From Promethearchaeota archaeon (GTDB lineage: Archaea; Asgardarchaeota; Lokiarchaeia; Sigyniarchaeales; SOKP01), in NCBI GenBank assembly GCA_011364925.1, contig RDOA01000071.1, positions 1-12,280 on the forward strand: 12,280 nt of DNA. The letters are read 5' to 3'. The notes beneath the pieces are model-generated. The model worked only from the letters and a program-made list of their open reading frames with translations, did not search any database and was not told the origin of the DNA. The translations under genes and the position numbers were made by a program. The stretch's first letter is position 1, and each line of letters starts with the position of its first letter. Shown one piece after another: positions 1,386 to 11,932 of the stretch.

Positions 1386-1547
1386 TCAGGTTAAATTCTT
1401 CTTTCTCCATTCTTTTAGAAATTTTTCGTATTTACTTTTAGGAATTCCAATTGAATTCACGAAATCCTTTTCCAATTCTTCTTCTTTATCTGAATTGTTA
1501 TTACGAAAGGCTAATTCCCAGTCGAAATACGATTCTGATTTTGACAT
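1386..1547 (-). CDS. Small protein, 53 aa (MSKSESYFDWELAFRNNNSDKEEELEKDFVNSIGIPKSKYEKFLKEWRKKNLT); paralog of 1673..1843
   Basis: Manually translated, ATG at 1547 and TGA at 1386-1388. Shares S-[YF]-[FY]-DWE-xx-FR, NSIG and W-xx-KNL with the neighbouring small ORF. Confidence 0.8.
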   Translation of the reverse strand: MSKSESYFDWELAFRNNNSDKEEELEKDFVNSIGIPKSKYEKFLKEWRKKNLT

Positions 1548-1972: not shown

Positions 1973-2926
1973 CTATTTAGCACTTTCAATGTTGATCTTT
2001 CGGCTAGTGATCTTGACTCCTGCATTTCTAATTTTATTTATAGTGTTATCCACAAGTTGTTCTGCTTCAGATGCTTTTTTCAAACCAGTTATCACCATTT
2101 TACCGGAAGAAAACAATATAATAGTAACATTTGGACTCCCGCTTTTCATGACTAATCCTGGAAATCTCTCGGCATTGAATTCGGCACCCTCAATATTCTG
2201 AGCGATATAATTTAGATCTAATTTCTTGTCGATTTCCATAGAAACCGTTATAATATGCTTTATATTTTTCCGACGCTGTAATACTTTTATTTTTTTATAA
2301 AATTCTTGTAAAGATACTTTTAATTCATTGTAGGAATCTGTTATTTTAGCATGCTCTTCTTCGGAAACCGAATCCATTTCATCTATATACAAAGCTTTGA
2401 AAACATAGGGATTAGATTTCAATTGAGATTCAAAATCAATGCAAAGAGATTTGATTACTTCTTCAATCGCTTTAGTTATTTTCTGATCCAACAATACACT
2501 TATCATCAACATTTCTTTATTTCCACGAGCCCACTCCGAGCGAAGTTCAAAATAATAATTAAAGGATGATACTGTGCTAGATTGGTACTGAAAAAACTTC
2601 TCTGTAAAGGATTGAGTCATAACATCTAAAAGGCTTTCTTTCTCAATATTATTAAGAGCATCCTCGGGATATGCGTAAAATAGATTCGGTCCAGATTTCC
2701 TTTTAAAAAAAGTGAGCGCTATACTAGTCTTTGTCACAATTTTAGCTTCAGGAATTAAAATGAGAGTGTAAGAAACTTCAGGATCAAGAAGCTCATCATC
2801 AACATAAGCTTTACTTATAGGAAACTTAGCCCCATTTTTGTGTACCCTTAATATTTGATTTCGCAAGCTTATACTTCCATATTTTTGTGCTTCTTGGATC
2901 AATTTCTTTCTATCCCTTTCTTCCAT
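1973..2926 (-). CDS. Multidomain protein: putative AbrB-like N-terminus, longin/uDENN-like middle domain, C-terminal single TATA-binding-protein (TBP) repeat
   Basis: The C-terminal ~95 aa (LDLNYIAQNIEGAEFNAERFPGLVMK...IILFSSGKMVITGLK) match one TBP repeat. The middle segment (IALTFFKRKSGPNLFYAYP) resembles the start of a uDENN/longin domain. The N-terminal domain call is tentative. Confidence 0.8.
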   Translation of the reverse strand: MEERDRKKLIQEAQKYGSISLRNQILRVHKNGAKFPISKAYVDDELLDPEVSYTLILIPEAKIVTKTSIALTFFKRKSGPNLFYAYPEDALNNIEKESLLDVMTQSFTEKFFQYQSSTVSSFNYYFELRSEWARGNKEMLMISVLLDQKITKAIEEVIKSLCIDFESQLKSNPYVFKALYIDEMDSVSEEEHAKITDSYNELKVSLQEFYKKIKVLQRRKNIKHIITVSMEIDKKLDLNYIAQNIEGAEFNAERFPGLVMKSGSPNVTIILFSSGKMVITGLKKASEAEQLVDNTINKIRNAGVKITSRKINIESAK

Positions 2927-2960: not shown

Positions 2961-3032
2961 TGAAATATTCATTTATAAATATATTGAAATATTTATTGAA
3001 CATTTTAATGAACAATTTTTAGAAATATTTTA
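2961..3032. promoter_or_regulatory. Divergent promoter region: TATA-like TTTATAAA (2972-2979) within an in-phase array of degenerate 12-bp repeats
   Basis: Units tgaaatattcat (2961), tgaaatatttat (2985), tgaacattttaa (2997), tgaacaattttt (3009), agaaatatttta (3021). The array lies between divergent genes starting at 2926 (-) and 3073 (+). Confidence 0.4.
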
Positions 3033-6871: not shown

Positions 6872-9292
6872 TTATCCATTCTCTAAAAAACTAGCTAAGT
6901 TCTTCTGATTATATCTCCTCAGAACATTAGACTTAATCGACTCTTCGAGTTCAGGGAATTCAAATGGGAAAATGTTCTCGAAAGCTCTTTTCAGCAACTC
7001 AACGTATTTCTTTTTATCGTATTGGTGTTTCTTATTGTCATAAAGATGAGAAAGGATAACTTTCCTCTCAGGAAAATCTGGATCAGCCTCCGCATTAAGG
7101 ATAATATATCGAACATTTTTACCAGGAGACACTACGACGCCTGATCTCTCTAATTGTCTTGCGGCAACAGCCTGGTACGAGTTGACTTTATACTTTTTCG
7201 GCGTACGCGAGATTCTTTGGCGAATTGTAAGTTCATCTCGCGAAATTTTGCCTGTTTCTATTTTATCAATGTATCGATAGAACAAATTCTTTGCTTTCGG
7301 TATTCTTTTCATGAATTCATCGACAGTAGTTGCGCCTTTGAAGATATCGATAAACGCGTATTGGGCGTCTTTTATTATTTTTGGTGCGTCTCTACGGCGA
7401 ACTTCGATTCCTCGCACTTTTACTTCTCCATTGCTTTTGATACCCCAGTAATGGCTAAGAGCTGGGATGTCTGGTTCTGCGCGCGAGGGAAGAAAAGCAA
7501 TAACATTATAGCGTCCATCCCAGCTCATCGGAATACCAGTGGTTTGAGATATTTCATTGGCAATTTGTTTTGTTACTTCCTCGAACTCCTCAGGAGATCT
7601 GTTTTGTATGTCCTTAAGCCAAATCGAATCGACAATTCCATGAACAATTTTACAACCATGTCCTTCAGCAATTTCAGCTGATCGCATAAGAAATTCTCTA
7701 GCAAAAGCGCAAACGGTCTGATGTGCTTCAATCTTCCCAAAACGGGCGTTTTTGAACCCTAAATAGCCGAAACTTACGACAAGCACCCACTTAAGAGCGA
7801 TATCCACAAAGTTATAGCGAACACTTCCGGTTTTTCGCACATATTCTTTGTACTTTAGTCTTTTTTTCAATGGTAGACTTATTGATTTTGAGATTATGCC
7901 TTGTCTTTTTGTACAGATGTGGAAATCCAACCCAGGAACTTTTATGCCGGTGCCGTCCTCTTTGCAACATTTGCAGTTAACAGTTTCGGAAGAGACATTA
8001 AAAGTCGCCATTAAGGATGGATACATGGAAGAAAAATCTAGCTCTACTACTTGATCATAAACTCCAACAATAGGCTCGTAAATGTGTCCGCCACGATCGC
8101 TTTTAATTAAGTCCATTCCAGTATTGAAGCCTTCGGGACTCTTCTTGAAAGGAGGAATCAGATGATCAAGTTTGTAAGCATTATAATACTGTATTGATTG
8201 AAGTGCGCCCCCGATAGTAATGCGACTCAATCTTTGGAGGGGAATTCGTGATATTCGCGCAACTTCAATAACTCCGGGGATATTACCTTCAGAAAAATGG
8301 AGGCTCGCGTATGTTGCTGTGTCTAAATGTATTCTACCGGTTAAATAGACTTGAGTTTTAGACCTTTGCCTGATTATACCATAAGACATGTAGTGGTCCG
8401 AACCTCCAGAAAGCTCAAAGATTCCGTTTGCTAAAGGTTTTTTATCTCGAGATAGGTAAAGGTCTTTCGTTATTCGGTATTTGGAGGCTCGAGAAACCAA
8501 ATATGGAAAGAGAAATTCGTCTCCATTTTGCGTAAGGATAATATCAGGATCAAGGCGCTCGATTACTTTACTTATTGTTCTTATGGTTTCTGCCTCGCTT
8601 ATCTTCTCGATTTGTATTCTACGCTTTTTATACCCATCCGCTCGAGGAACATTATCTTTATCGTTTTCTACTACTGCAATTTCAGCATAGACAATAGGAT
8701 CGTTGTAATACGGTTTGATCCCTTGGTATTGAATTTTCACATCTAGCCAAACAGCTCTTAATGGAGGTAAATCGTAGAAGAGTTTTTCGTTATCGTCTTG
8801 TAAATCTATAGAAACGAGGCGTAAAATATTCGACTCCCTTCTTTTGCCTTTTTCCACTTTGATTTCAAATTGGCAATAAGACATGGGAAAAAGGTCATTA
8901 ACATAAAAGTACATCTGAACAATGGGCAGATCTGTGTTGTATAAAGTAAAGAGTCCAATTTCATCAATTTCTTTAATTGTTTTTTTAAACACTGAAGGCT
9001 TTTCGACAGTGACGCCAAGTATTCTCGACTTCTCGTGATCTTCCAGCTTCACGTACTTTTCGCAGATTCGCACCTTCTTTACGTTTTGATTCTGCGTTAA
9101 AATGTATTGCATTCTTTTGAAGTCGTTCCCAACATCTACATCATTTTTGGGAACTGCAAAGAATTCAGGAGAAAATTTGTGGAAGATTCTTATTACTTTC
9201 TGCTCTTCTTCAGTTTTTACCCAAAGGATAACCCCTTCGCTATATGTAGATACATCTAAGAGCCACCCTTTGAAAGCTATTTGCGTGTCCAC
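6872..9292 (-). CDS. polB2: Family B DNA polymerase, PolB2 (Dpo2) group
   Basis: Motif A LDFSSMYPS, PolB2-type motif B KWVLVVSFGYLG, motif C HGIVDS in place of YGDTDS, and KVRGIEVRRRD. ExoII is degenerate (NGDEFLFPYL). Also N-terminal GWLLD, a CxCC...C cluster and a C-terminal PIP-like QKNLASF. GTG start. Confidence 0.93.
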   Translation of the reverse strand: MDTQIAFKGWLLDVSTYSEGVILWVKTEEEQKVIRIFHKFSPEFFAVPKNDVDVGNDFKRMQYILTQNQNVKKVRICEKYVKLEDHEKSRILGVTVEKPSVFKKTIKEIDEIGLFTLYNTDLPIVQMYFYVNDLFPMSYCQFEIKVEKGKRRESNILRLVSIDLQDDNEKLFYDLPPLRAVWLDVKIQYQGIKPYYNDPIVYAEIAVVENDKDNVPRADGYKKRRIQIEKISEAETIRTISKVIERLDPDIILTQNGDEFLFPYLVSRASKYRITKDLYLSRDKKPLANGIFELSGGSDHYMSYGIIRQRSKTQVYLTGRIHLDTATYASLHFSEGNIPGVIEVARISRIPLQRLSRITIGGALQSIQYYNAYKLDHLIPPFKKSPEGFNTGMDLIKSDRGGHIYEPIVGVYDQVVELDFSSMYPSLMATFNVSSETVNCKCCKEDGTGIKVPGLDFHICTKRQGIISKSISLPLKKRLKYKEYVRKTGSVRYNFVDIALKWVLVVSFGYLGFKNARFGKIEAHQTVCAFAREFLMRSAEIAEGHGCKIVHGIVDSIWLKDIQNRSPEEFEEVTKQIANEISQTTGIPMSWDGRYNVIAFLPSRAEPDIPALSHYWGIKSNGEVKVRGIEVRRRDAPKIIKDAQYAFIDIFKGATTVDEFMKRIPKAKNLFYRYIDKIETGKISRDELTIRQRISRTPKKYKVNSYQAVAARQLERSGVVVSPGKNVRYIILNAEADPDFPERKVILSHLYDNKKHQYDKKKYVELLKRAFENIFPFEFPELEESIKSNVLRRYNQKNLASFLENG

Positions 9293-9294
9293 TT

Positions 9295-9567
9295 CTATTC
9301 TTTTCCTTTTGTTATTTCCTCTAATTCTCCAATCTTTTTTTCCAATAACCCAATTTTTTTCTCTTGCTCAATTGCAAACGATATGAAAAGGATTTCAGAG
9401 AGCATTGGACGAGCGCTTAGACTGCCAGCGTCGGCGTGAATTCTAGCGAAATTCATCAGTTTATCAAAAACTTTTTGATCCTCTGGTCTCAATGCTCTTT
9501 TGAAATCTTTCCAGCTTTCAATCTCGTGCTCTAACGCAGGCCTAAAAGCAGGCACTGTCCGACCCAT
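9295..9567 (-). CDS. Small PolB2-associated helical protein (arCOG07300-like)
   Basis: Signature MGRTVP-x-FR...W-xx-FKRALR-x-ED-xxx-FD-x-L. It ends 2 nt before the polB2 start codon, the usual gene context for this family. Confidence 0.85.
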   Translation of the reverse strand: MGRTVPAFRPALEHEIESWKDFKRALRPEDQKVFDKLMNFARIHADAGSLSARPMLSEILFISFAIEQEKKIGLLEKKIGELEEITKGKE

Positions 9568-9756
9568 ATTTTACACATTTAGTATTGTTTCAGTATCTCG
9601 GTAAAAAGTCTTTCAAAAAATTTAAAGAAAAATACCTTCGAAATTTTCTAATTTTCATTTTGAAAGAAATAGTGTAAGTAAATCCGCACAACAAAAATTC
9701 GTTCGTTTTTCGAAAAATAAAGATATAAATTGGAGATATTTTGATACAGTGATATA

Positions 9757-10494
9757 ATGGTTGATTTAAACATACTTCTTAATTTCATTGGGATGATCTT
9801 TGAAACTTTCATCATTGTGATTTCTGTAGTTTTACTAGTGCTTATCATTAAAAAATACTTAATTAAGCGTCACAATCTAACTCGGTTGCTTCTAATCATT
9901 TTCATTTGTTATCTGATAGCAATTGTGTTTTCTTGGTTATCGAAAGTATTTGTTTTTGCCCAAATAGGCGTAGTTCAAGATGGATCTATTGTTGCTTGGA
10001 TGTATAATCTAGTCAAAGATTTTAGGTTAAGCGAATTCTTTGTAACGATCGCTATTTTCTTATCCTACGTCTTAAAAGTTAATGTATTTGAGAAGGGATA
10101 TAATACGTTACAAAAATATGTTGTAATAGTATTTGGTATATTCGCTTGTGTTTATGTATTGTTTATCTATGAAAGCGGAAATACATTATTAGACATAATA
10201 GCGTTCTTAATCGTTTTCGTATACATGGTTATGGTTTACGCACCCTTTTTACGAAGATCAATAGAAGCATATCGTAGAACTGATGAAAAGGTATATAGAC
10301 AAGCATTTTTATCGTTAGCGGTTATGTCTTTAAGCTTTATGTTAATATTTCTCAATTTCGCCATCGATCGGGTATTGATCTTTTTGGGAAGTCCTGGATT
10401 TACTGTATTTTATTTTCTAGCGTGGATTTCAGCGATTGTTGGGATTTTTGGAACGTACTATGGGTATATAAAACCAAAAGCTAGTGAAAAATAA
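9757..10494 (+). CDS. Hypothetical 7-TM membrane protein
   Basis: Seven hydrophobic segments can be counted in 245 aa. There is no retinal-binding Lys in helix 7. Confidence 0.8.
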   Translation: MVDLNILLNFIGMIFETFIIVISVVLLVLIIKKYLIKRHNLTRLLLIIFICYLIAIVFSWLSKVFVFAQIGVVQDGSIVAWMYNLVKDFRLSEFFVTIAIFLSYVLKVNVFEKGYNTLQKYVVIVFGIFACVYVLFIYESGNTLLDIIAFLIVFVYMVMVYAPFLRRSIEAYRRTDEKVYRQAFLSLAVMSLSFMLIFLNFAIDRVLIFLGSPGFTVFYFLAWISAIVGIFGTYYGYIKPKASEK

Positions 10495-10518
10495 ATACTA
10501 ATTTTCTTTCTTTTTTTT

Positions 10519-10929
10519 ATGGTTGAAGATCTAAAAAACTGGCACGCACCTTGTGGAATTTATTGTAAAAGATGTCCTGGAGTTCAAGCGTATAATTGTA
10601 AAGGGTGCCGAACCCAAGAAGGTCAAATTTTGAAATTTCCAGTATGTAAGACATTTCAATGTGTAACTGAGAAAGGTCACGAATTCTGCTACGAATGTAA
10701 CGATTTTCCATGCGAGAAGTTACAGACAATTGTAAATTTCGAGATTTTTTTGCCTCACAATTCTAAGATCTACAACCTGTTGATGATCAAGAAATTGGGA
10801 CTTTCTAAATGGAATGAGATTTGTGAGGAAAAGTCAGATCTTTATTATATGGGAAAAAAAATCCAATATGGTGGAGATCCTCTAACACTAGAAGAGAAGG
10901 ACCCTAAATTTTATAAAAAGAAGGAATAA
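10519..10929 (+). CDS. Cys-rich metal-binding protein, DUF3795-like
   Basis: Pattern APCG-xx-C-xx-CP...CKGC...C-xxxx-C...KG-x-EFCYEC-x-DFPC. Confidence 0.85.
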   Translation: MVEDLKNWHAPCGIYCKRCPGVQAYNCKGCRTQEGQILKFPVCKTFQCVTEKGHEFCYECNDFPCEKLQTIVNFEIFLPHNSKIYNLLMIKKLGLSKWNEICEEKSDLYYMGKKIQYGGDPLTLEEKDPKFYKKKE

Positions 10930-10935
10930 GGATAT

Positions 10936-11070
10936 TTATTGTTTCGCTTTCCACTCCTTATAGGCCTTTGTCATATTACCGCAATGGATTGCTTTTTTAC
11001 CCGTTTCTTTTTCAAATTTTTCTTGTAATGCCTTTTCAGCTCCAGCAGCGGGAGCTTTCTTTTTTGCCAT
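10936..11070 (-). CDS. Small Lys/Ala/Glu-rich protein, 44 aa (MAKKKAPAAGAEKALQEKFEKETGKKAIHCGNMTKAYKEWKAKQ)
   Basis: Manually translated, ATG at 11070 and TAA at 10936-10938. It fills the gap between the RadA-like gene and the DUF3795-like stop and has protein-like composition. An AGGAG lies about 10 nt upstream of the start. Confidence 0.75.
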   Translation of the reverse strand: MAKKKAPAAGAEKALQEKFEKETGKKAIHCGNMTKAYKEWKAKQ

Positions 11071-11149
11071 AATTTTCAAACTCCTTTTTATTATGTTTAA
11101 TCAATTATTTCTAATTTTCGATGTATACAGATTCTTATTTAAACCTTTC

Positions 11150-11932
11150 TTAAAGATTGATCCAACAGTCTAACGTCGCATTTTTTGTGGAACTTGCTAA
11201 GTTTCTTTTAGGAACGCGCGGTTTCCACTTTAGAAGGCGGTTTTCCGGCAAGTAGGGGTGTTGAACAAGAACGTACTCTGTATATCGCTCGTCTTCGTTT
11301 ATCATTACTAATACACTTCCGAAATGGGAAAGAATCTTTCCACCATTAGGCCTGTAGAGCGAAAATTCGTTTAAAGGCGCAGTTAACACGATTAGAGGTT
11401 TTGTTTTGAAGAGAATTGTCTTGATCCCGTTAATCGCTCGAAGTAAATCCTCAAAAGTCTGCTTTTCGTAGCTCTGAAATAATGTAGTAATACCAGATAT
11501 CAAAACAACTTTTATCTGCTCAAGTTTAGAGAGTCTATTCTCTAAAAGCTCTACCATTTGATCCCAAGTAAACGCGCGAGCAATCAAAATATTCTCTAAT
11601 ACTTTTTTAGGCGAGAGATTTTGAAAAACTGCGAACTTACTTACATCATACGGGTTGAAACGGTTGTTTGCATCAATGAGCGCAACTTTAATATTCTCTC
11701 CGAGACCACCATTATTAAAAGATTTTTGAGCCATAACAGCAGTGGTCAACAAAATGTTCGCACACTTCTTTTTGTCACCATAAAGGAGATGTATCAGGTC
11801 TTTTTGAAGGCCTCCGCCGCCTAATAGTTCATCTAGCGTTGTATCTCCACTTGGAACTGAAGGAATTCCTTTGTTTTTGTTATATACATTTAACCCCGAT
11901 TTGAAAGACATCAAATAAGATATTGTTCGCAT
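11150..11932 (-). CDS. RecA/RadA-fold protein with degenerate ATPase motifs (PolB2-associated, ImuA-like)
   Basis: RadA core motifs SGDTTLDELLGGGG, ALIDANNRFNP and LENILIARAFT-xx-Q. Walker A is eroded (YGDKKKCAN) and the Walker B Asp is lost (VVLISG). There is no N-terminal HhH domain. Confidence 0.88.
   Translation of the reverse strand: MRTISYLMSFKSGLNVYNKNKGIPSVPSGDTTLDELLGGGGLQKDLIHLLYGDKKKCANILLTTAVMAQKSFNNGGLGENIKVALIDANNRFNPYDVSKFAVFQNLSPKKVLENILIARAFTWDQMVELLENRLSKLEQIKVVLISGITTLFQSYEKQTFEDLLRAINGIKTILFKTKPLIVLTAPLNEFSLYRPNGGKILSHFGSVLVMINEDERYTEYVLVQHPYLPENRLLKWKPRVPKRNLASSTKNATLDCWINL

Follow-up and report, generated by a model that had tools for sequence, protein, structure and literature searches.

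A Lokiarchaeal gene family joins a folliculin-type longin to a predicted dimerization module and an optional single TBP lobe, downstream of a candidate autoregulatory operator

The window analyzed here (the whole stretch of 12,280 nucleotides from a Promethearchaeota archaeon) carries on its minus strand, at 1973..2926, a gene for a 317-amino-acid protein of three domains. The N-terminal module (residues 1–62; 2741..2926, minus strand) consists of a helix followed by β1-β2-α-β3 and is a putative DNA-binding domain. It precedes a longin (residues 65–218; 2273..2734, minus strand) of the folliculin/NPRL2/SMCR8 type, assigned from fold and motifs, and a single TBP lobe (residues 222–317; 1976..2263, minus strand) from repeat 1 of the Lokiarchaeal TBP. 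The original prediction of a three-domain fusion with one TBP repeat is borne out by fold matches and by a database search, which recovered the same architecture in 55 other full-length clusters (316–324 amino acids, 55–93% identity, one TBP repeat). Among the matches listed in this search are also at least 64 relatives without the TBP repeat, nearly all of about 220 amino acids. The named sources of the matches are Lokiarchaeota, Promethearchaeota and related Asgard labels.

Independent contigs, drawn from two studies, run across the junction at 2263, which together with the 55 clusters rules out an assembly chimera. The open reading frame has a dN/dS of about 0.2 (N-terminal module 0.10, longin 0.20, TBP lobe 0.22; 33–34 pairs of nine genes with dS near 1). 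Because the architecture recurs, the junction is spanned and dN/dS is low, the open reading frame is a real, conserved gene of one Asgard lineage. A decaying singleton TBP part is likewise ruled out, by the dN/dS of the lobe, which is under selection, and the number of clusters. The gene is single-copy in 22 of the 42 genomes of the genus and is fused to the TBP lobe in nine.

The conserved neighborhood comprises PolB2, a GyrI-like gene, a 181-aa membrane protein and two microproteins. The two microproteins are paralogous (56 and 53 aa; 1673-1843 and 1386-1547, minus strand), lie directly downstream of the gene and keep their synteny in relatives, where the region upstream of them is likewise conserved; contig C48 carries a third copy. 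A PolB2-like polymerase, a 90-aa partner (DUF8156 in relatives) and a RadA-like gene occupy 6872-11932 (minus strand) and are also syntenic in relatives. Between 5464 and 6391 lies a 930-bp gap of raised GC without a long open reading frame; an Rfam search of the window returned no match, in this gap or elsewhere.

The fold of residues 65–218 is that of a longin, with 6nzd_H as the closest structure, ruling out that the middle domain is something other than a longin; a search of the longin sequence against the PDB with HMMs gave no match. A GP motif (G79-P80, nt 2687-2692, minus strand) stands at the start of strand 2 and an arginine (R134 in WARG, nt 2525-2527, minus strand) in the loop that connects strands 4 and 5, both in 56 of 56 fused proteins. 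The GAP-type longins FLCN, SMCR8 and NPRL2 and the Asgard GP/Arg longins carry a GP motif and a conserved arginine (PMC12290439), and share with the domain described here the longin fold and the GP motif; R134 may correspond to the arginine finger of FLCN and SMCR8. Residues 65–218 are thus a folliculin-type longin, of the small-GTPase-regulator type. The longin predicted for the middle of the protein is in this way confirmed by fold and GP motif; the TBP lobe follows it directly, without the cDENN and dDENN of DENN proteins. Unlike FLCN, SMCR8 and NPRL2, the longin lacks a DENN or winged-helix part and is attached instead to a putative DNA-binding dimer. The conserved gene neighborhood contains no partner longin gene. 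Elsewhere the genome encodes Rag-, Arf- and Rab-like GTPases and, on contigs C49 and C70, two paralogous longins, one followed by an uncharacterized C-terminal region and the other by a small-GTPase-like domain.

The N-terminal module is the best conserved part of the protein. It has an invariant loop, H-x-N-G-x-K-F, and its most conserved residues are exposed basic or polar loop residues. When two full-length copies were modeled together, the dimer score was 0.54 against 0.00 for the best control. Of solved homodimers, 20 of 30 attain this mark, as does 1 of 23 single chains; contact agreement between runs was at least 89% and pLDDT at least 78. This prediction agrees with the homodimerization proposed originally and places the interface in the N-terminal module, at residues 5–61 (pairs 35-35', 56-56' and 24-54'); every contact named falls within residues 2–61, with strand 2 pairing with 2', 3 with 3' and 1 with 3'. 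The model names no confident contact between the two TBP lobes or the two longins, a silence that is evidence neither way. Residues 1–62 are thus predicted to form an intertwined homodimer with swapped outer strands and strand 2-2' pairing. Such a contact pattern fits a dimer of β1-β2-α-β3 units, as in cradle-loop barrels of the RIFT form (PMC4802759).

By topology, we infer that the module is cradle-loop/AbrB-superfamily-like. It shares with the AbrB/MazE/SpoVT swapped-hairpin barrels and the RIFT barrels a small intertwined β-barrel homodimer, predicted here; the AbrB swapped-hairpin unit has four strands (PMC3326315), whereas three (RIFT-like) plus an N-terminal helix are predicted for the module. 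The AbrB-like domain suggested earlier finds a topological counterpart in the predicted dimer but no profile match to PF04014. The module matched no Pfam family, with no significant hit to PF04014, and no PDB entry in a profile search. Foldseek, VIA and Atlas searches with the monomer model returned no family for it, nor did ESM Atlas features; hhalign against Asgard PF04014 domains gave a probability of 0.2, within the range of shuffles, with a shallow profile. PF09853 was not found in any of the 41 genomes searched. Because no match to PF04014 is significant, the DNA-binding assignment is based on topology, basic residues and a co-inherited motif.

Among 251 genomes sampled from the phylum, the module occurs in 18, all in the family of the window; two further families of the same order have distant versions, and the module is Lokiarchaeia-specific. 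It is also mobile, since it is fused to other domains at L017:2254-3285 (minus strand), at L018:3325-4638 (plus strand) and in P0249. The partners in these three proteins include a weak acetoacetate-decarboxylase-like match, an unassigned domain and a longer longin protein.

Upstream of the gene, a TGTTCA-N6-TGTTCA direct repeat (2997..3014, minus strand) forms a candidate autoregulatory operator, for which 0.01 occurrences are expected by chance. A putative TATA box (TTTATAAA, 2972..2979, minus strand), assigned from position and conservation, lies 53 bp upstream of the start codon and 35 bp downstream of the first TGTTCA box. The boxes are found in nearly all orthologues, fused or unfused, at different loci. 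They number two to four, including degenerate copies, 11–12 bp apart. The first box usually stands 34–35 or 44–46 bp before the TATA box, so that helical phase is kept. Box variants read TGTACA, and each box is a near-palindrome, TGWWCA, which suits a two-fold symmetric dimer.

In the 3.9 Mb genome of the window the repeat is the only intergenic site of its form, also with a weight matrix; this search for a wider regulon covered paired boxes and found no other intergenic pair. Exactly one match is present in 17 of the 42 genus genomes, and 16 of these 17 precede this gene (reversed-pattern control: 1). A match occurs in 16 of 22 genomes with the gene and in 1 of 20 without, counts that are not independent, as the genomes compared are kin. 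A motif present once per genome and following one gene is the pattern of an autoregulatory operator and points to the protein as an autoregulatory transcription factor, although another factor could bind the TGTTCA motif. The arrangement resembles that of MraZ, whose own promoter carries direct repeats one helical turn apart. In archaea, the activators EarA and Ptr2 bind repeats upstream of the BRE (PMC5512572), but the boxes described here extend, with the last degenerate one, as far as the BRE position, so that the protein may either activate or repress.

The TBP part of the protein is a single Pfam stretch that ends with the stop codon after residue 317, without an adjacent second half. Residues 223–316 match yeast TBP 69–160 and adopt the TBP lobe fold. 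The two phenylalanines noted originally are indeed kept (F255, nt 2162-2164; F272, nt 2111-2113; minus strand). The positions of the DNA face, which we take from TBP–DNA structures through an alignment with plant TBP, are better conserved than the helix surface (entropy 0.86 vs 1.61, p 0.003), and F255, K261, T268, F272, K276 and T280 are each found in 88–97% of lobes. Conversely, both dyad asparagines are replaced (K223, 94%, and S315, 77%, at yeast positions 69 and 159), and G281 is kept in 44% of lobes as against 98–100% of TBP repeats. The stirrup reads FNPE(K/R), of repeat-1 type, instead of YEPE, the acidic repeat-2 stirrup that binds TFB. Judged from these residues, the lobe keeps its outer, kinking end but not the elements joining the two halves, which argues against a rebuilt saddle and makes an alternative TBP unlikely. 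It is more likely that the lobe adds DNA grip beside the TATA box than that it rebuilds a second TBP. Any DNA affinity would be weak, because the net positive charge is lost (mean -1.1, against +5.9 for TBP repeat 1) and so is the lysine at the position of N266. Conservation of a hydrophobic face would be compatible with protein binding as well.

The genome has its own intact TBP (G000, contig C20), to whose repeats 1 and 2 the lobe is 52% and 32% identical, respectively. Compared with this protein and other archaeal TBPs (1MP9, 2Z8U), the lobe is one repeat without dyad asparagines or a TFB-type stirrup, and it is fused, optional and faster evolving. In a tree of TBP repeats, built from a short alignment and with many open forks, the fused lobes form one clade (100/99) within Lokiarchaeal repeat 1 (96/95), and a topology that places them with repeat 2 is rejected (p-AU 0.003). 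In a tree of the N-terminal 215 residues all fused proteins fall in one clade (100/98), nested among unfused proteins, and unfused proteins also sit inside it. On its simplest reading, this tree suggests one gain of the lobe and at least two losses. One loss is seen at the syntenic locus of G015; another is a clean in-frame deletion of 80 residues within a 90% cluster that holds ten members of 241 aa and three of 321 aa. Because the lobe has been lost repeatedly, with a deletion coexisting with full-length forms, it is optional.

No family of stand-alone half-TBPs was found as a donor. The only repeat-1 lobes found to stand alone are two singletons, P0368 (104 aa; L061:1963-2277) and P0400 (117 aa). 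In G023 a TBP gene is split into two open reading frames (L023:3711-4397), possibly by a frameshift or assembly error. Many members of the genus have a second or third divergent two-repeat TBP paralogue (L062-L069). The canonical TBP gene of the window genome belongs to a series of genes on one strand (L001:4122-7019) that also includes two small-GTPase-like genes and one of 162 aa.

Lone TBP domains are known from haloarchaeal TbpA, Thermococcales monopartite proteins, RNase HIII and DNA glycosylases, and two isolated fusions of TBP domains to possible DNA-binding domains have been noted (PMC3597702). These proteins likewise contain a solitary, independently folding TBP domain, and TbpA is likewise derived from the TBP of its host. 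Monopartite proteins are defined as stand-alone and under 150 aa, whereas the present 317-aa protein belongs to a conserved family in which the TBP domain is joined to a longin and a dimer module; such a fusion is not among the TBP architectures described in the parts of the article consulted (PMC3597702). We found no description of an Asgard TBP–longin or other TBP fusion, nor of a TBP lobe inserted in tandem Lrp regulators, in a literature search that covered mainly open-access papers. The parts are known (lone TBP domains, GAP-type Asgard longins); the combination is new as far as this search goes, as is the TGTTCA direct repeat in helical phase upstream of the gene's TATA box.

A second host of the lobe is a set of about 90 clusters of tandem Lrp/AsnC regulators (400–440 aa), in which one TBP repeat lies between two Lrp units (L014:1142-2428, L013:3218-4468, L015:2608-3891, L016:2138-3409; P0122-P0214). 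Tandem Lrp relatives of 318 aa lack the lobe, including the copy of the window genome on contig C70. In the repeat tree the Lrp-inserted lobes also derive from repeat 1, so the lobe has become attached to two unrelated regulator families. Both kinds of fusion carry an optional repeat-1 lobe on a DNA-binding regulator (a putative one in the longin family), but in the tandem Lrp proteins the host is different, the insertion is internal and the DNA face is less conserved. The trees support neither a common nor a separate origin of the two sets of lobes. Among the 42 genus genomes, nine have the longin fusion and ten a lobe-containing open reading frame of 420–435 aa, of which four were verified as Lrp fusions. 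No genome has both, which may only reflect kinship.

The reading we favor, at about even odds, is that the protein is a lineage-specific autoregulating transcription factor with a longin input and a tethered one-sided TBP lobe. The predicted dimer of residues 1–62 would bind the two to four TGWWCA boxes, 11–12 bp apart on one helix face directly upstream of its own BRE/TATA. The folliculin-type longin would be the input domain, probably contacting a small GTPase or another longin/roadblock protein. One sub-lineage gained a lobe copied from the first repeat of its own TBP. Positioned next to the TATA box by the dimer on its operator, this lobe would act as a tethered one-sided minor-groove binder whose two phenylalanines wedge into AT-rich DNA, thereby competing with the real TBP or pre-bending DNA for it. 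The lobe would tune the regulator, be dispensable and rebuild no TFB-recruiting saddle. The insertion of a related lobe in a second, clearly DNA-binding family speaks for this mechanism. Against it stands that a regulator with its own promoter as sole site has no evident output.

The lobe may instead be a protein-binding decoy, an unlikely reading in which its concave face binds the DNA-binding face of the real TBP or a TBP-binding factor, making it an anti-TBP or a local recruiter. TBP dimerizes through its DNA-binding face. Consistent with such a role, the concave face is conserved although net charge fell, TBP can dimerize (PDB 1vok is titled as a dimer), and Ptr2-type activators on repeats upstream of the BRE can recruit TBP (PMC5512572). 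However, the conserved set holds basic residues that contact phosphates in TBP (K261, K276, R/K254), and save for the two singletons the lobe occurs only on DNA-binding-type proteins.

That the lobe folds but serves no function, as a tolerated passenger, is quite improbable. At least two losses, a lobe deletion segregating within one cluster and evolution much faster than that of TBP repeat 1 are what a passenger would show; a dN/dS of 0.22 at dS near 1, the selective retention of exposed DNA-face residues and the keeping of the same lobe by a second family are not. Similarly doubtful is that the protein is no transcription factor at all, its N-terminal module serving only to bring two longins together into a GTPase-regulating pocket while another factor binds the repeat. 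Eukaryotic longin GAPs do need two longin domains (PMC12290439), and searches by sequence and by fold linked the module to no known DNA-binding family. The motif nevertheless occurs in front of this gene only, and where the module is fused to other domains, related boxes lie upstream at L017 (TGTTC/GAACA boxes) and L019, though not at L018. The exposed basic or polar nature of the most conserved module residues also speaks against this alternative, which leaves the TBP lobe unexplained. Finally, a saddle rebuilt from the dimer's two lobes as a signal-responsive alternative TBP, as originally proposed, is highly unlikely: the predicted dimer brings two lobes together and both phenylalanines are retained, but the dyad asparagines and the repeat-2 stirrup and ancestry are missing, the glycine is kept in fewer than half of the lobes, the longin linker and the C-terminal tail would, given the match to yeast TBP, both occupy the saddle center, and the lobe is repeatedly lost from a lineage whose genome has an intact TBP.

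If the lobe is part of an autoregulating transcription factor, a broader and rather improbable extension is that Lokiarchaeia made half a general transcription factor a mobile effector module of gene-specific regulators, with a folliculin-like GAP domain passing small-GTPase state directly to a promoter-bound dimer acting on TBP loading. The significance of the family is limited by its narrow distribution, in one genus, and by the optional lobe. The family nonetheless allows recent TBP fission and re-use to be traced, in two regulator families, bearing on the origin of lone TBP domains and on whether one tethered TBP lobe can bind DNA, with natural variants with and without the lobe as built-in controls. 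Small GTPases and longins are numerous in Asgard archaea, and here a GAP-type longin is coupled to a putative DNA-binding dimer. With a defined candidate operator, the link from GTPase to transcription is testable with one protein and a 60-bp probe. If true, it would be a one-protein link from eukaryote-type GTPase signaling to transcription initiation in an Asgard archaeon.
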